The notes under the pieces are model-generated. The model did not search any database, was not told the origin of the DNA, and saw only the letters and a program-made list of their open reading frames with translations. Shown here piece after piece: positions 5,039 through 57,514 of a stretch of DNA of 64,000 nt. The stretch spans positions 416,001 to 480,000 of the forward strand of contig OZ219865.1 of NCBI GenBank assembly GCA_964291675.2, given 5' to 3'. How positions within the stretch are numbered: the stretch's first letter is position 1; every line of letters starts with the position of its first letter. Source of the stretch: Alphaproteobacteria bacterium. Lineage in GTDB: Bacteria > Pseudomonadota > Alphaproteobacteria > MPNO01. The position numbers and the translations under genes are program-made.

Positions 5039-5410
5039 ATGGCGCTGGACTCGATGCTGCTCGAGTATCTGCCGATCCTGATTTTCCTCGGCATCGCCGT
5101 GGCGATGGCCGTGGCGGCGGTGGCCGCCTCCTACATCATCGCCCGGCAGCGGCCCGACAGCGAGAAGGTCTCGGCCTACGAATGCGGTTTCGAGGCGTTC
5201 GACGACGCGCGCAGCCAGTTCGACGTGCGCTTCTACCTCGTCGCCATCCTGTTCATCATCTTCGATCTCGAAATCGCGTTCCTGTTCCCCTGGGCGATCT
5301 CGCTCGGGGCGATCGGCATGCTGGGCTTCTGGTCGATGGTGGTCTTCCTCGCGGTGCTGACCATCGGCTTCGTGTACGAATGGAAGAAGGGCGCACTCGA
5401 ATGGGAGTGA
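5039..5410 (+). CDS. nuoA: NADH-quinone oxidoreductase subunit A
   Basis: [24 protein letters not shown] and [11 protein letters not shown]; GGAGG RBS. Confidence 0.97.
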
Positions 5411-5922
5411 GCGTCAACCCCGCCGACACCGGCGCGGCGATGCGGGCGATCGGTGCCGAGCTGTCCGACAAGGGGTTCATCGTCACCCAGGTCGACAAGC
5501 TGATGAGCTGGGCGCAGAGCGGGTCGCTGTGGCCGATGACCTTCGGGCTGGCCTGCTGCGCGGTGGAGATGATGCACTCGGCGGCGAGCCGCTACGATCT
5601 CGACCGCTTCGGGGTGATCTTCCGCCCCAGCCCGCGCCAGTCCGACGTGATGATCGTCGCCGGAACGCTGACCAACAAGATGGCCCCGGCGCTGCGCAAG
5701 GTCTACGACCAGATGGCCGAGCCGCGCTGGGTGATCTCGATGGGGAGCTGCGCCAATGGCGGCGGCTACTACCACTACTCCTACTCCGTGGTACGAGGCT
5801 GCGACCGGATCGTCCCGGTCGACATCTACGTTCCCGGCTGCCCGCCGACGGCGGAGGCGCTGCTCTATGGGATTCTCCAGCTTCAGAAGAAGATCAAGCG
5901 GACGAGCAGCTTCGCCCGTTGA
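5401..5922 (+). CDS. nuoB: NADH-quinone oxidoreductase subunit B
   Basis: [21 protein letters not shown] and [10 protein letters not shown] (N2 cluster ligands). Confidence 0.97.
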
Positions 5923-7758: not shown

Positions 7759-8357
7759 GCGGGGGTTTCGCGCTGACGCCCGAGAACCGGGCCAAGGCCG
7801 AGGCCTTCGTCGCGCGCTACCCCGAAGGGCGGCAGGCCTCGGCGGTGCTCGCCGTGCTTGACATCGCGCAGCGCCAGAACGGCGGCTGGCTGTCGCCGTC
7901 GGCGGTCGAGCACGTCGCCCGGATGCTCGACATGGCGGAGATCCGGATCTACGAGATCGTATCGTTCTACGAGATGCTGCACGCCGAACCGGTGGGCGAG
8001 CACATGGTCAGGGTCTGCACCACCACCCCCTGCATGCTGCGCGGCAGCACCGACATTCTGGAGGCCTGCAAGGGCGAGCTCGGCGTCGAGATCGGCGGCA
8101 CCACCGCGGACGGCAAGTTCACCCTGACCGAGTTCGAGTGCCTCGGCGCCTGCGTCAACGCGCCGATCGTCTGGATCGACGACGACTACTACGAGGATCT
8201 CGACCCGGAGAGGGTTGTGGCGATCCTCAAGGCGTTGCGCGCCGGAGAACCGCCCGAGCCGGGCTCGCAGATCGGCCGCCGGGGATCGGCGCCGCTCGGC
8301 GAATGGACCTCGCAGACCGGGTTCGCGCCCGCCGGCGGGGCGGGGGAGGGCGGCTGA
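7755..8357 (+). CDS. nuoE: NADH-quinone oxidoreductase subunit E (GTG start)
   Basis: [10 protein letters not shown] and [10 protein letters not shown] 2Fe-2S ligands; GTGA overlap with nuoD. Confidence 0.96.
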
Positions 8358-9646
8358 TGGCGCTCGCCGACAAAGACCGCATCTTCACCAACCTCTACGG
8401 CCAGGACGACTGGCGGCTCGCCGGGGCCAGGCGGCGCGGCGACTGGGACGGTACCGGCGCGCTGCTCGCCAAGGGGCGCGACTGGGCGGTCGAGGAGGTC
8501 AAGTCGTCGGGGCTTCGCGGGCGCGGCGGGGCCGGGTTCCCGACCGGGCTCAAATGGTCCTTCATGCCCAGGGAATCGGACGGCCGGCCGTCATATCTCG
8601 TCGTCAACGCGGACGAGAGCGAGCCCGGAACCTGCAAGGATCGCGACATCTTGCGGAACGATCCCCACAAGCTGATCGAAGGGTCGCTGCTGGCCGGCTT
8701 CGCCATGGGGGCGCACACCGCCTTCATCTACGTGCGCGGCGAGTTCTTCCGCGAGGCCGAGCGGCTGGAGACGGCGGTCGGCGAGGCGCGCGAGGCCGGG
8801 CTGATCGGTCCCGACGCCTGCGGCTCGGGCTGGGATTTCGACATCGTCGTCCATCGCGGCGCCGGCGCCTATATCTGCGGCGAGGAGACCGGGCTCCTGG
8901 AAAGCCTCGAGGGCAAGAAGGGGATGCCCCGGATCAAGCCGCCGTTTCCGGCCAATACCGGTCTCTACGGCTGTCCGACGACGATCAACAACGTCGAGAC
9001 GATCGCCGTGGTGCCGGCGATCCTGCGCCGCGGCGCCTCCTGGTTCGCCGGGTTCGGACGGGAGAACAACACCGGCACCAAGGTGTTCTGCATCTCCGGC
9101 CATGTGAACGACCCGTGCAACGTCGAAGAGGAGATGGGGATCCCGCTGCGCGAGCTGATCGAGAAGCACGCCGGCGGGGTGCGCGGCGGCTGGGACAACC
9201 TCAAGGCGGTGATCCCGGGCGGCTCGTCGGTACCGCTCATCCCGAGATCGCTGTGCGACACCGCGATCATGGACTTCGACGGGCTGCGCGACCTCAAGTC
9301 GGGGCTCGGCACGGCGGCGGTGATCGTCATGGACGAATCGACCGACGTGGTCGCAGCCATCGCCCGGCTGTCGAAGTTCTACATGCACGAATCCTGCGGC
9401 CAGTGCACGCCCTGCCGCGAGGGCACGGGCTGGATGTGGCGGGTGATGGAGCGGCTGGTCCGCGGCGATGCCGAGGTCGAGGAGATCGACATGCTGCTCG
9501 CCGTGAGCTACGAGATCGAGGGCCACACGATCTGCGCCCACGGCGACGCCTCGGCCTGGCCGATCCAGGGCCTGATGCGCCACTTCCGCGACGAGGTGGA
9601 GAGCCGCATCGTCGCCCGCAAGTCGGGCCGCGAGGCGGCGGCGTAG
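8357..9646 (+). CDS. nuoF: NADH-quinone oxidoreductase subunit F
   Basis: [28 protein letters not shown] and [13 protein letters not shown]. Confidence 0.97.
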
Positions 9647-9651
9647 ACGGG

Positions 9652-10248
9652 ATGTCCGAGCTCCGGATCGAGTATCTGGTCCTGTTCGCGGGGTTCGTGC
9701 TGCCCGGCGCGATATCGATGTATGTGTATGCGTTGAATGTTCCTCAAAGAGAAGAAAACCTGAAGAATAAGATAATCGAATGTATTTGCTTCAGCATTTT
9801 GAATTTTATTGTTATGATAGTTCCGATCCGATACGCGCTGGAACACTGGAACTTGAACGATAACTTTATATGGAGCTATGCTCTCTTAATTTTGTCCTTT
9901 ATTGCGATGCCCATTATTTGGCCATATATTTTGATCCAGTTGCTGGATAAATTCGAGAAGTTTCGTTGGATCGCTCCGCGCCCGAAGACTTCTTGGGATT
10001 TCGTGTTCCAAAAAGAGACCGGCTGTTGGCTGCAGGTCGCGATGAAGGACGGTAGCCGGATCGGCGGGAAGTTCAGCCAGAATTCATACGCAACCGCCTA
10101 TCCGGATCCCGGCCATCTCTATCTTGAAGAGGTCTGGGAAGTGGATGGCGATGGCGGTTTCCTGAGGCAGTACCTGAACGAGCCCGGGATAATCTTGAGG
10201 CCCGAAGACTATAACTATGTCCTCGTCTATGGAGGTGGAGATGGATGA
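9652..10248 (+). CDS. DUF6338-like membrane protein (about 3 TM segments plus beta-rich C-terminal domain), AT-rich, inserted in the nuo operon
   Basis: FVLPG in TM1, further hydrophobic helices, then SWDFVF...WLQVAMKDGSRIGG...YATAYPDPGHLYLEEVW. The family was recognised from memory, not by search. Codon usage is strongly AT-rich relative to the flanks. Confidence 0.75.
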   Translation: MSELRIEYLVLFAGFVLPGAISMYVYALNVPQREENLKNKIIECICFSILNFIVMIVPIRYALEHWNLNDNFIWSYALLILSFIAMPIIWPYILIQLLDKFEKFRWIAPRPKTSWDFVFQKETGCWLQVAMKDGSRIGGKFSQNSYATAYPDPGHLYLEEVWEVDGDGGFLRQYLNEPGIILRPEDYNYVLVYGGGDG

Positions 10249-10417
10249 AAAACGGAAGGGACAAAGGCGAGTTTCCTCGCGCGGCGTCTTGGGGGAGAGG
10301 TTCGGTTATCAGCCGCAAACCGCCGCGCCGGCCAATCCGCCCACGGGCAAAGGTTCGAAGTCTGCGCCAAAGAGCGGTGCGAGCGGTTCGTCGTCCGATA
10401 GCAAGAAAACGAAGTAG
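10241..10417 (+). CDS. Small basic low-complexity peptide (58 aa) with GYQP...NPP.G.GS core
   Basis: GGAGG at 10231-10235 precedes ATG 10241. The start overlaps the upstream stop by 8 nt and the ORF fills the gap before nuoG. Confidence 0.6.
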   Translation: MDEKRKGQRRVSSRGVLGERFGYQPQTAAPANPPTGKGSKSAPKSGASGSSSDSKKTK

Positions 10418-10470
10418 GCCCGCGGCGGGGCGGGATCGCTGACAGGTTAAGCGTCTGAAATGACTATGCC

Positions 10471-12528
10471 ATGGCCACACTGACCATCGACGGAATCGAG
10501 ATCGAGGTCGAGGACGGGATCACCGTCCTGCAGGCCTGCGAGGAGGCCGGCATCGAGATCCCGCGCTTCTGCTATCACGAGCGGCTGTCGATCGCCGGCA
10601 ATTGCCGCATGTGCCTGGTCGAGATGGAGCGCTCGCCCAAGCCGATCGCCTCCTGCGCCATGCCGGTCGGCAACAACATGGTGATCCGCACCGACACGCC
10701 GATGGTCCAGAAGGCGCGCCAGGGGGTGATGGAGTTCCTGCTGATCAACCATCCGCTCGACTGCCCGATCTGCGACCAGGGCGGCGAGTGCGATTTGCAG
10801 GACCAGGCGATGGCCTACGGCTTCGACCGCTCGCGCTTCGCCGAGAACAAGCGCGCCGTGCCGGACAAGGATTTCGGCCCGCTGGTCGAGACCCACATGA
10901 CGCGCTGCATCCACTGCACGCGCTGCATCCGCTTCGTGACCGAAATCGCCGGCGTCGAGGAGCTCGGCGCCACCGGGCGCGGCGAGCACATGGAGGTCGG
11001 CACCTATGTCGAGAAGGCGCTCGCCTCCGAGCTGTCGGGCAACATCATCGATCTCTGCCCGGTGGGCGCGCTGACCTCGAAACCCTACGCCTTCAACGCG
11101 CGTCCCTGGGAGCTCGCCAAGACCGAGACCGTGGACGTGATGGACGCGGTCGGCAGCAATGTCCGCGTCGACTCGCGGGACGGCGAGGTGCAGCGGGTGA
11201 TCCCGCTGCTGAACGAGGACATCAACGAGGAGTGGATTTCCGACAAGGCGCGGTTCGCCTGCGACGGGCTGCGCCGCCAGCGCCTCGACACGCCCTATGT
11301 GCGCCGCGACGGCAGGCTGGCGCCCGCGAGCTGGGCGGAGGCGCTCGGCGCGGTCGCCGACAGGCTGGGCGGGACCGCGCCGGAGCGCATGGCGGCGATC
11401 GCCGGCGACCTGGCCTGCTGCGAGTCGATGGCGATGCTGAAGGACCTGTTCGCCGCGCTCGGCTCGCCCCATGTCGATGCGCGCCAGGAGGGGGCGAAGC
11501 TCTCGGCGGCGGCGCGCGCCGGCTACCTGTTCAACACCGCCATCGCCGGGATCGAGGACGCCGATGCCTGCCTGATCGTGGGCGCGGACGTGCGCCGCGA
11601 AGCCCCGCTGGTCAATGCGCGCCTGCGCAAGCGGCATTCGATGGGCGGCTTCCCGGTCGGGCTGATCGGCGAGCCGGTCGACCTCGCCTGGCGCTACGAC
11701 CATCTCGGCAACGACGCCGCCCTGCTCTCTGAAATCGCCGTCGGCGAACACCCGTTCCGCTCAAAACTGGAAGCGGCCGCGCGTCCGATGATCGTCCTCG
11801 GCGAGGCGGCCTACGCGCGCGACGACGGGGCGCGAATCCTCGGCACCGCCCGTGCGATCGCCGAACGCTTCGGCATGGCGGGCGAAGAGTGGAACGGGTT
11901 CAACGTGCTGCACCGTGCCGCCGCCCGGGTCGGCGGGCTCGATCTCGGCCTGGTGCCGGGCGAGGGCGGGCGCGACGTGGACGCGATCCTGGCGGGCGCG
12001 GAAAGCGGCGAGATCGAAGCGGTCTATCTGCTCGGCGCCGACGAGATCGACACGCAAAGGCTCGGCGAAGCCTTCGTGGTCTATCAGGGCCATCACGGCG
12101 ACGCCGGGGCGATGCGCGCCGACGTCATCCTGCCGGGCGCGGCCTATACCGAGAAGGAGGCGACCTACGTCAACCTCGAGGGCCGGCCGCAGCGCACCGC
12201 CCGCGCGGTGCATCCGCCGGGCGAGGCGCGCGAGGACTGGCGCATCCTGCGCGCGCTGTCCGAGATTCTCGGCCGGAAGCTGCCCTGCGACACGGTGGAC
12301 GAGGTGCGCGCGCGGATGGCGGCGATCGCCCCGGTCCTCGCCGGGATCGGCGCGGTCGAGCGGGCGCCCTGGCAGGCGTTCGGCGAGGACGGGCCGCCCG
12401 ATCCCGGACCGCTCGGCACCGCGATCGGCAACTACTACATGACCGACCCGATCTCGCGGTCGTCGGAGACCATGGCGGCCTGCACGCGGGCCTTCCTGGA
12501 GACCTCCCGGGCGGCGGCGCATGGATAG
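10471..12528 (+). CDS. nuoG: NADH-quinone oxidoreductase subunit G
   Basis: [32 protein letters not shown] and RCIHCTRC. Confidence 0.97.
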
Positions 12529-55513: not shown

Positions 55514-56178
55514 ACCTTGACCTGGTCCGGGCCGAAGATGCGGGTCTCGTGTTTCGGGTTGGCGGGCTCCAGCGCTATCGAATCGCGGCGCCGCCGAAAC
55601 CGTTTCAGGGTCACTTCCTCGTCGCCGACCAGGGCGACCACGATATTTCCGTTCTCGGCCGTGTCGCCCCGCCGGATCACCGCGACATCGCCGTCGTGGA
55701 TGCCGGCCTCGACCATCGAATCCCCCTCGACTTCGAGGGCGTAGTGCTCGCCCGCGCCCAGCAGGGATTGGGGCATCGCGAAGCTTTGCGTGTTGTCGCG
55801 CAGCGCCTCGATGGGAACGCCGGCGGCGATCCGGCCATACAGCGGCAGCTCGACGAGCTGCTGGTCGTCGCCGCCGCTCGCGCCGCCGAGTTCGTGGGCG
55901 AAGTCGCCCTCGATGACCTTGGGCGCGAAGCTGGCGGCCCGCTTCGCCGCGCCTTCGGCCATGGTCTCCGGTCGGCGCAGCACCTCAAGGGCGCGCGCGC
56001 GGTGAGGCAGGCGGCGGAGGAAGCCGCGCTCCTCAAGGGCGACGATCAGGCGATGGATGCCCGATTTGGACTTGAGGTTGAGCGCCTCTTTCATCTCGTC
56101 GAAGGAGGGCGATACGCCGTGCTGGCCGATGAACGTGTCGATATAGGCCAGCAGCTCGTATTGTTTGGGTGTCAACAT
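55477..56178 (-). CDS. lexA: SOS repressor LexA
   Basis: [27 protein letters not shown] cleavage site, GDSM catalytic Ser and TLKR catalytic Lys. Confidence 0.98.
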
Positions 56179-56212
56179 GGGTCACCGTCCGGCTCGATCG
56201 CTACCAGATATG

Positions 56213-56252
56213 GAACGAAACATAAACATGCCTACATGTTCTAGTAAAGTTC
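56213..56252. promoter_or_regulatory. Alphaproteobacterial SOS boxes upstream of lexA
   Basis: Perfect GTTC-N7-GTTC at 56238-56252 and imperfect GAAC-N7-AAAC at 56213-56227. The perfect box overlaps a minus-strand TTGACG-17 nt-TAGAAC promoter (56266-56238). Confidence 0.88.
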
Positions 56253-56293
56253 CAATCCCACGTCAACGATCCAGGGCGGATACCGATTCGTTT

Positions 56294-57514
56294 TCAGATT
56301 CGCACCGTGCCGCCTTCGAGCCGCAGGATGCGGACGGGCTCGCCCTTGGCGGCCGGCGGGGCAAAGGGCTCGCGGACGATCAGGCAGTCCGCGCGCGCCA
56401 TGTTGGCGAACATGGAGCTGTCCTGGATGTCGAACGGCGTCGCCGTCAGCCCGGCTTCGGCGTCCATCGCGAGCGAGGCGCGCAGATAGTCCTGTCGTTC
56501 GTCATTGGCGCGGAGACCGGCGCCGAGCCGCGCGGGCTCGCTTGCATCCGGCGACGCGGCGGCGGCCAGCATCGCCGACAGCGCGGGTTTGACGAAAATC
56601 ATCGCGCAGACCATCGACGAGACCGGGTTGCCCGGCAGGCCGAGCAGCGGCGTGCCGTCCAGGGCGCCGAAGATCAGCGGCTTTCCCGGGCGCATCGCTA
56701 TGCGCCAGAAATCGACCTTTAGCCCGACCTCGCCGAGGACGCTCTGCACCAGGTCGTGATCGCCCACAGACGCGCCGCCTGTGGTGAGCACCAGGTCGGC
56801 ACCGCGCGCGCCCGCCGCCATCGTCTTCAGGGTCTCGGCCGAATCCGGCGCAATCCCCAGATCGATGGGGTCCGCGCCGAGGGCGGCAACAAACCCGGCA
56901 AGCGCCAGCGCGTTGGAGCTCACGATCTGGTCGCGCCCGACCGGCTCTCCCGGCATGACGATCTCGTCGCCGGTCGCCAGGATCGCCACCCGGGGCTTGC
57001 GGCGGACCTTGAGCCAGGGCAGGTTCATCCCCGCCGCCAGCCCGACATCGCGCGCCGTCAGGATTCGGCCCGCCCCGAGCAGCACGTCGCCTTCCGAAAA
57101 GTCCAGCCCGGCGGGGCGGACGAAGCGCCCCTCCGGGGCCTCGCCGTCGACCACCTCGACGCGGCAATCGCCGGCATCCCTGGTGTTTTCCTGGATGACG
57201 ATGGCATCGGCGCCGTCGGGCACCGGCGCGCCGGTGAAGATGCGCACCGCTTCCCCGGGGCCGACCCTGCCCTCGAAGGCGCGTCCGGCCGGGGCGTAGC
57301 CGATCACGGAGAGATGGGCGGGGAGGGTCCGCACGTCTTCCGACCGGACCGCGTAGCCGTCCATCGCCGAGACGGGGAGGGGCGGCTGGGTGCGCCGGGC
57401 CGCCACGTCCTCGGCCAGCACCCGTCCGAGCGCCGCGCCGAGCCCGACCTGCTCGGCCGGCATCGGCCGGAGCGCCGCCAGGATGCGGCTCTGCGCTTCG
57501 CCGACCGAGATCAT
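56294..57514 (-). CDS. moeA: Molybdopterin molybdotransferase MoeA
   Basis: SAMDGYA, IFTGAP, TGDE, GGASVG and LPGNPVS. Confidence 0.96.

Follow-up and report, generated by a model that had tools for sequence, protein, structure and literature searches.

A conserved DUF6338 membrane protein-peptide gene pair, resident between nuoF and nuoG of an alphaproteobacterium and carried elsewhere by mobile elements

What is a small, AT-rich two-gene cassette doing inside the operon of respiratory complex I? This question is raised by a 64,000-nucleotide (nt) stretch of DNA from an alphaproteobacterium (Alphaproteobacteria bacterium, assembly GCA_964291675.2, contig OZ219865.1, positions 416,001 to 480,000 of the forward strand), hereafter called the window. 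In this window, nuoF and nuoG are separated by a gene encoding a 198-amino acid (aa) membrane protein of the DUF6338 family (gene 1) and by a short open reading frame (ORF) encoding a basic peptide (gene 2). As detailed below, the DUF6338 gene and the peptide gene are a real, conserved pair, and this is the case throughout the family.

A DUF6338-peptide module was defined as a DUF6338 gene with a same-strand small ORF directly downstream, encoding a G-[YFW]-x-P motif and a proline-rich tail, an arrangement displayed by the window. A scan of 185,579 species representatives with patterns of the window's subfamily retrieved 10 true loci. The nuo-type set is composed of the window and ten relatives (11 loci); L011, a 33-residue match in a Bacteroidetes metagenome-assembled genome (MAG), was dropped as spurious. 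In all ten relatives, the DUF6338 gene is located between nuoF and nuoG, starts 1-14 nt past the nuoF stop and has on its 3′ side a small ORF of 55-76 codons. In each of the 11 nuo-type loci, the peptide ORF has a candidate ATG near the DUF6338 stop, at a position between about 20 nt ahead of its end and about 23 nt past it; a purine-rich GGAG/GAGG-like stretch precedes most of these candidates.

Outside the nuo operon, a tblastn search with the window protein found DUF6338 at about 25-35% identity, as full-length matches, in 20 plasmid records and one phage-plasmid, and a nucleotide search found a DUF6338 locus in 6 of 5,426 Escherichia coli genomes. A typical phage gene is ruled out, the two-query search of phage records having returned a single record, a Klebsiella phage-plasmid. 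The comparison was made over 32 loci, namely the 11 nuo-type loci, 18 from plasmids or phage and three from E. coli, with L016/L030 and L018/L031 as near-duplicates. In the non-nuo loci, one to three tandem same-strand small ORFs are found directly downstream of the DUF6338 gene, with one to three G-[YFW]-x-P motifs (1-3 repeats per peptide); up to three tandem peptide genes occur in L014, L016 and L017. The peptides of proteobacterial copies terminate in a tail of the type P-P-K-K-P. An exact match to the motif was observed in 11/11 nuo-type, 15/18 plasmid or phage and 3/3 E. coli loci, that is 29 of the 32. Two exceptions carry a variant (G-V-Y-V-P in L025, T-Y-R-P in L032) and the third, L026, has no recognisable peptide. 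Thus, the conserved partnership suggested in an earlier note, drawn from the letters of the window alone, is borne out in the homologues.

The specificity of the motif was assessed by an automated control over 26 loci. The motif was present in 68 of 3020 background open segments (2.3%) against 30 of 123 just downstream of the DUF6338 gene, and 24 of the 26 loci were positive, versus 2.5 expected by chance. This control missed L021, where an annotated 48-aa ORF carries the motif, and L025 was probably scored through a chance match. It should be added that the peptide ORFs are unannotated in the records of L013, L019, L020, L022, L023 and L032.

Some copies are decayed. The DUF6338 gene is frameshifted next to an intact peptide ORF in L009, L023 and L030, and the converse, loss of the motif beside a clearly intact DUF6338 gene, was found at no locus except L026. 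At L009 (5001-5587), the nuo-type DUF6338 gene is split near 5264 and the peptide ORF extends intact from 5591 to 5794. The frameshifted non-nuo copies are those of the Pantoea plasmid L023 (3654-4291) and of the Acinetobacter soli plasmid L030 (2501-3093). Separately, the Acinetobacter ursingii RIVM_C011601 plasmids L018 and L031 contain many short gene fragments (JAB 156-351 nt, ThiF 417 nt). This fragmented annotation suggests an error-rich assembly, so that no biological meaning should be given to gene breaks in these regions.

In the window, the cassette and its two flanks are organised as follows (positions of the window).

8357..9646, plus strand: nuoF (NADH dehydrogenase 51-kDa subunit; Pfam Complex1_51K, SLBB and NADH_4Fe-4S), upstream flank of the cassette
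9601..10251, strandless: low-GC island over gene 1, minimum GC 0.35 (200-nt windows) against 0.685 for the whole window
9652..10248, plus strand: gene 1, 198-aa DUF6338 membrane protein (Pfam PF19865, E=1.8e-37)
9667..9960, plus strand: three predicted transmembrane (TM) helices, residues 6-29, 37-65 and 72-103 (AlphaFold2 secondary structure)
9991..10230, plus strand: predicted cytoplasmic helix and Sm-like (LSm-fold) beta-barrel, residues 114-193 (Foldseek against the PDB)
10230..10243, plus strand: Shine-Dalgarno-like GGAGGTGGAG with the start codon (ATG) of the peptide gene; overlaps the 3′ end of gene 1 (sequence)
10241..10417, plus strand: gene 2, 58-aa basic peptide (66 aa if read from the ATG at 10217); homologous small ORFs in 10/10 related loci
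10295..10345, plus strand: peptide core E-R-F-G-Y-Q-P, seven residues, P-P-T, a short linear motif seen in the alignment
10471..12528, plus strand: nuoG (75-kDa subunit; Pfam Fer2_4, NADH-G_4Fe-4S_3 and Molybdopterin), downstream flank

The nuoF stop codon is TAG 9644-9646 and gene 1 starts at ATG 9652, leaving a gap of 5 nt. Gene 1 ends at TGA 10246-10248. Gene 2 is in another frame, open from ATG 10217 to 10417, and ATG 10241 is its most plausible start because GGAGGTGGAG lies upstream and because this ATG overlaps the gene 1 stop (ATGGATGA). The GC content is 0.385-0.41 over 9700-9999 versus about 0.68 in the flanks, and the GC content at third codon positions (GC3) is 0.62 in gene 1 versus 0.93 in both nuoF and nuoG. 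In 200-nt windows, the gene 1 region is the only marked low-GC island of the 64 kb. A second, weak dip is seen at 56051-56301 (minimum 0.51, 200-nt windows), at the junction of two minus-strand ORFs.

Co-transcription of the cassette with nuoF and nuoG is presumed. Consistent with this, the 9300-10800 region contains one promoter-like and two terminator-like sites, not above shuffled sequence, and no Rfam match was obtained at E≤1 over 9400-10700. The same scan neither favours nor disfavours an internal transcription unit. The earlier note had described a low-GC, sense-oriented cassette, beginning 5 nt after nuoF, with overlapping ORFs and probably co-transcribed with nuo; the coordinates and the composition agree with every point but the last, with which the scan is compatible. 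A transposon- or integron-like insertion is unsupported, the repeat search having returned only 10-20 nt matches, with no flanking attachment-like or terminal repeats.

What are the two products? Gene 1 is a full-length member of Pfam DUF6338 (PF19865), a family without assigned function, fold or partner. It scores 129.3 bits against a gathering cut-off of 26.5, with residues 8-193 on profile positions 7-200 of 205, and this is its sole significant Pfam match. The nearest ESM Atlas clusters are also DUF6338. In addition to 27 close homologues, searching 1.84 billion representative proteins with the DUF6338 profile returned 1966 clusters at E≤1e-3, of which 812 at E≤1e-10. No match was found in NCBIfam, PHROGs or PADLOC. 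A PDB sequence search with profile A1 gave only noise (best hits cytochrome c peroxidase and uL13m, E>0.4), and a BFVD fold search was uninformative apart from one uncharacterised full-length look-alike (E=3e-6).

The AlphaFold2 model of gene 1, built from a 144-sequence alignment, has a mean predicted local distance difference test (pLDDT) score of 92.5. It contains the three long helices listed above, a short helix (114-121) and seven strands (125-193), in keeping with the three TM helices and the beta-rich domain anticipated in the earlier note, which had also recognised the protein as DUF6338-like. With Foldseek, the top 30 or more PDB matches of the model were all Sm/LSm chains, and almost nothing else appeared; they include the Edc3 LSm domain (6am0 chain D), archaeal Sm proteins (1i5l, 1th7, 1i4k) and spliceosomal Sm proteins. 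E-values are weak (0.007-0.04, none ≤0.001), TM-scores (template modelling) to the target are 0.5-0.68 and identities 14-23%. We thus read the C-terminal domain as an Sm-like barrel at the level of the predicted fold only. The modelled barrel superposes on the Edc3 LSm domain and on archaeal Sm proteins with the best of these TM-scores (0.59-0.68), but, unlike them, it is attached to three TM helices. Dcp2 contains short linear motifs to which the Edc3 LSm domain binds.

The orientation of gene 1 in the membrane can be proposed from the positive-inside rule. Over 144 members, the net lysine-plus-arginine charge is +1.7 after the third TM helix, +0.5 in loop 1, -0.8 at the N-terminus and -0.2 in loop 2, from which the N-terminus would be outside and the barrel, with the C-terminus, in the cytoplasm. 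The C-terminal domain would accordingly face the compartment where the leaderless peptide is synthesised. Residues P18, G19, N51, P87, W115, D116, F119, G139, S145, P151 and G179 are conserved in at least 90% of the 144 sequences, and no catalytic signature is evident among the conserved residues of this alignment.

The gene 2 peptide has a net charge of +9 and 9% hydrophobic residues. Its predicted structure shows no secondary structure (predicted template modelling score 0.18), as expected from the disordered peptide of the earlier note, and the block of highest pLDDT, residues 21-30, falls on the core. In the alignment of the 11 nuo-type peptides, E19, G22, P25 and P33 are invariant and P34 nearly so (window numbering). 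The consensus core is (R)LIIEKGG-Y/F-R/Q-P, seven residues, P-P-T/A, of which the window core E-R-F-G-Y-Q-P...P-P-T is a divergent form. A second core repeat is present in the peptides of L004-L006, and 10 of the 11 nuo-type peptides are net positive. The peptide belongs to no Pfam, NCBIfam or PADLOC family and has one non-significant PHROG match (E=0.059); nine further partner peptides gave nothing meaningful with Pfam and NCBIfam. A profile of the nuo-type peptides retrieved 32 small unnamed proteins. None has a Pfam domain, and in most the core is accompanied by a second Y-R-P...P-P repeat and by Lys-Lys at the C-terminus. In longer proteins of 99-128 aa (P0195, P0198, P0200, P0201, P0203, P0204 and P0207), the LIIEKGGYRP...PP core is N-terminal and resembles a portable tag; their C-terminal extensions have no Pfam match above cut-off.

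Peptides of this kind have been detected in Pseudomonas stutzeri. In a proteogenomic study, three proline-rich peptides of 36-47 aa, SEP1, SEP5 and SEP2, are encoded directly after a DUF6338 gene and were identified by digest-free mass spectrometry with 44-114 spectra each, whereas the DUF6338 protein itself went undetected; membrane fractions were not part of that analysis (PMC10433244). As in the present loci, a DUF6338 gene is followed there by tandem short, proline-rich, basic ORFs with a Pro-Lys tail; compared by eye with Table S5 of that article, the Pro/Lys tail is kept but the strict G-Y-x-P core is not (PMC10433244). The article describes the three peptides as possible new genes, with no conservation outside P. 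stutzeri (PMC10433244). The loci compared here show, from their sequences, that the partnership is a trait of the family and not specific to P. stutzeri. In the literature searched beyond that article, no mention of DUF6338 or PF19865 was found, nor anything on the pairing, the motif, the fold, a nuo-resident subfamily or a nuoF/nuoG insertion. The predicted Sm-like fold, the conserved peptide partner and the nuo-resident subfamily are found here for DUF6338.

Could the peptide itself be the active product, the membrane protein serving for its export or for immunity? The peptides are indeed short, basic and proline-rich, their genes are sometimes tandemly multiplied, and a possible antimicrobial role has been suggested from proline content in P. 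stutzeri (PMC10433244). Against such antimicrobial or signalling products, no signal or leader peptide was seen on the partner peptides, and in none of the 32 loci is an ABC exporter, a peptidase or a modifying enzyme conserved beside the pair, which does not correspond to a leader-dependent bacteriocin or RiPP (ribosomally synthesised and post-translationally modified peptide). The internal repeats of the motif suit a binding motif better than a cleavage site, the Sm-like domain is predicted to be cytoplasmic, and a three-helix protein would be small for a transporter. This explanation is very unlikely. In its favour, the motif may loosely resemble the Tyr-x-Pro core that characterises the proline-rich antimicrobial peptides of insects.

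It may also be imagined that the Sm-like domain is a harmless anchor, tethering LIIEKGGYRP...PP-tagged proteins to the membrane for housekeeping purposes. The tag-like occurrence of the motif at the N-terminus of the 99-128 aa proteins, with their additional C-terminal part, would agree with this idea, as would the abundance of the peptides in normally growing P. stutzeri (PMC10433244). But the extensions of the longer proteins match no Pfam family. Moreover, an anchor and its client would leave unexplained both the mobile-element and defence-island contexts of the pair and the allele replacement described below. A role of this type is unlikely.

How did the cassette come to lie in the nuo operon? 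The comparison with L002 is informative: its nuoF and nuoG are about 97% identical to those of the window in nucleotide sequence, but its cassette only about 55%. At the nucleotide level, the window and L002 are 95-100% identical in nuoF, up to its stop, and in nuoG, from about 10510, versus 32-75% across 9677-10509; at the protein level, NuoF and NuoG together are 95.6% identical and DUF6338 53%. In the NuoG tree, the sister of the window is L002 (support 97/97), whereas in the DUF6338 tree it is L001 (98/96). Approximately unbiased tests of this conflict gave p=0.013 and 0.037. The path between the window and L002 is 1.41 long in the DUF6338 tree versus 0.061 in the NuoG tree, a 23-fold difference. 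Point mutation in place cannot produce such a divergence and at the same time spare the synonymous sites of the flanks. Recombination through these flanks, which are conserved, replaced the allele of the cassette. From these sequence comparisons, the data indicate that horizontal exchange at the nuo site takes the form of allele replacement at a fixed site.

On a larger scale, the DUF6338 and NuoG trees contain the same two host clades. Since the DUF6338 tree recovers the host clades of NuoG, the cassette is an old resident of the nuoF-nuoG site. The earlier note had postulated a horizontally transferred module. Transfer stands in the form of allele replacement, but a single recent insertion does not, all ten relatives having the cassette at the same site and the trees agreeing at clade level. 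In the 10 nuo loci measured, the GC3 of the DUF6338 gene is 0.40-0.68 versus 0.77-0.93 in the flanks. Low GC3 in every lineage agrees either with recurrent import or with a region that escapes the forces maintaining a high GC.

Two side observations concern the nuo-type relatives. L008 (contig CAZGMC010000048.1) is labelled as an uncultured Mycobacteriaceae. Its nuoD, nuoF, nuoG and nuoH products are 68-74% identical to those of the window and it is placed inside the alphaproteobacterial clade of the NuoG tree, hence it is probably a misbinned contig. In L005, L007 and L008, nuoF starts about 830-1040 nt past the end of nuoD, versus about 600 nt in the window, which may reflect a longer nuoE or an extra reading frame.

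Residence at this site invites the idea that the membrane protein and the peptide have been recruited to complex I, as an assembly factor, a regulator or a supernumerary subunit, and are kept in the operon for that reason. The constant position between nuoF and nuoG in 10/10 close relatives, with host NuoF and NuoG 67-96% identical to those of the window, the agreement of the two trees at clade level, and the tight gene junctions with no excess of terminators would all be understandable in this case. On the other side, the pair is also found on plasmids, on a phage-plasmid and in E. coli integrated elements with no nearby nuo genes. The cassette evolves about 2-23 times faster than NuoG in tree path length, its alleles have been exchanged where the nuo backgrounds are nearly the same, its GC3 is much lower than in the operon, and the nuo-type copy of L009 is frameshifted. 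The distribution is patchy, with 10 loci among the species representatives scanned with the subfamily patterns. Searches of Pfam and of PDB sequences showed no homology of gene 1 to a known core or supernumerary subunit of complex I. Kinship with NdhL, a small TM subunit of chloroplasts, was considered and rejected, the match being non-significant (E=0.074, with the broad profile A2 only) and lost with profile A1. A complex I accessory is thus quite unlikely. The nqo cluster of Paracoccus has unidentified reading frames (URFs) between nqo1 and nqo3. The sense-orientation extra ORFs in the Paracoccus and Rhodobacter nqo/nuo operons of the 1990s literature, including ones between the equivalents of nuoF and nuoG, may be a similar case.

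Away from nuo, plasmids that are mobilisable or conjugative carry the pair, which also occurs in Tn7-like cargo, on a phage-plasmid and, inserted on the opposite strand, within integrated elements. The mobile and defence-related setting foreseen by the earlier note is encountered there, often with conflict-type genes as neighbours. The contexts are given below, with gene names as in the deposited annotation.

L012: Tn7-like cargo; DUF6338-peptide-TIR-caspase, same strand and tightly spaced
L025: TIR and caspase genes
L021: DUF6338-peptide-CHAT, same strand
L016, L018, L030: E1/JAB-DUF6338-peptides, same strand
L019: nucleotidyltransferase-SLATT-DUF6338-peptide, same strand
L017: RelE/ParE pairs
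L013: MazF gene
L026: type I restriction gene
L027, L029: TIR/SIR2 genes, E. coli integrated elements
L023, L028: P2-like CI/integrase regions

Composition was measured at six non-nuo host loci, and in five of them (all but L014) the module has a higher AT content than its flanks. In E. coli, the pair is inserted, on the opposite strand, between a DEAD-box helicase gene and a VRR-NUC gene (L027:6001-6764, L029:5627-6498). The element concerned bears an integrase and lies next to yfhL, with TIR genes, and in one strain also SIR2, as separate inserts.

In view of such neighbours, the pair might be the effector arm of larger defence systems. The peptide would then be a substrate or sensor of adjacent proteases (caspase, CHAT, JAB) or signalling enzymes (TIR, nucleotidyltransferase), and the nuo copy an orphan. 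The tight same-strand arrangements of L012, L021, L016, L018, L030 and L019 speak in favour of this proposal, all the more as three different peptidase families recur beside an unstructured peptide. Yet the neighbours vary from locus to locus and the pair alone is constant across the 32 loci. No enzyme of these kinds is present in the stretch examined at the 11 nuo-type loci and at L014, L015, L020 and L024. In PADLOC-DB v2, no family matched the product of gene 1 or gene 2, even at E≤1, so that neither is recognised as a known anti-phage defence protein. Considering both sides, an effector arm is unlikely.

The reading preferred here, still a tentative one, is that the cassette would be a self-contained mobile module of the conflict type, with the membrane protein kept in check by the peptide, and that it would be a hitchhiker in the nuo operon. 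Gene 1 would encode a small inner-membrane protein with three TM helices and a cytoplasmic Sm-like barrel, and gene 2, translationally coupled to it, a basic, proline-rich, unstructured peptide whose G-aromatic-x-P ... PP motif is probably where the Sm-like domain docks. An abundant and probably short-lived peptide would hold the membrane protein inactive, in analogy with toxin-antitoxin and abortive-infection pairs. Failure of the peptide supply, or cleavage or titration of the peptide, would release the membrane protein to act on the membrane. In the source genome and in a clade of Alphaproteobacteria, the module has settled between nuoF and nuoG, where it is presumably transcribed with the complex I genes and where its alleles pass from one relative to another by homologous recombination, the flanks being highly conserved.

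The analogy comes from the architecture of the pair, which is that of known two-gene conflict modules. As in toxin-first type II toxin-antitoxin systems (HigBA-type order) and in membrane abortive-infection effectors, two small genes are coupled and the unstructured partner would be probably labile and in excess. As in such pairs also, carriage is on plasmids or prophage-like elements, beside toxin-antitoxin and defence genes, and some broken copies of the putative toxin are found beside an intact partner. In contrast, there is no sequence or profile similarity to these systems, no Pfam, NCBIfam or PADLOC toxin-antitoxin family having been found for either product or for the nine further peptides; the putative toxin is a three-TM Sm-like protein, and the partner has no DNA-binding domain. 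The repeats within peptides and the tandem peptide genes, which can be viewed as dosage, and the intact peptide beside a broken DUF6338 gene, as decay, are counted in favour of the conflict-type module.

Several points weigh on the other side. One site has been kept in an essential operon across a clade where NuoG differs by up to about 40%, which suits a host-beneficial or complex I role equally well. The associations with neighbours come from the annotation of 21 non-nuo loci, with no background control and some near-duplicates. Among mobile elements the family is rare, with about 20 carriers in 72,556 plasmid records and one in 50,697 phage records, so that it cannot be called a common gene of such elements. 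Sequencing errors may account for the frameshifted copies: L009 comes from a MAG, and the L018/L031 assembly looks fragmented. To this should be added the weakness of the Sm matches given above. Finally, PADLOC, PHROGs and NCBIfam returned no significant match to a known toxin, antitoxin or defence family.

A bolder possibility, to which only a small chance is given, is that DUF6338 and its peptide constitute a membrane switch of a new class. Sm-like domains anchored in the membrane would form a ring that reads the motif on a fast-turnover peptide, and this ring would open or perturb the membrane when the peptide runs out. In the nuo subfamily, the pair would then be a built-in monitor of respiratory gene expression and not a mere passenger. 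If true, cell fate, or control of the proton-motive force, would depend directly on how the complex I operon is transcribed and translated.

A family of about 2,000 clusters with no known function can now be framed as a two-component system, made of a predicted Sm-like domain and a motif of about 17 residues. Should the pair be a toxin-antitoxin or defence module, it would represent a new type of membrane effector together with a new peptide-based principle of control. It also follows that small ORFs called species-specific in proteogenomics can belong to widespread families missed by ordinary similarity searches. The nuo-resident subfamily offers a natural case of an accessory cassette living in, and swapped within, one of the most conserved bacterial operons. 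As such, it bears on how conserved core genes serve mobile genes as handles for recombination, and on the puzzle of the URFs in alphaproteobacterial complex I operons.

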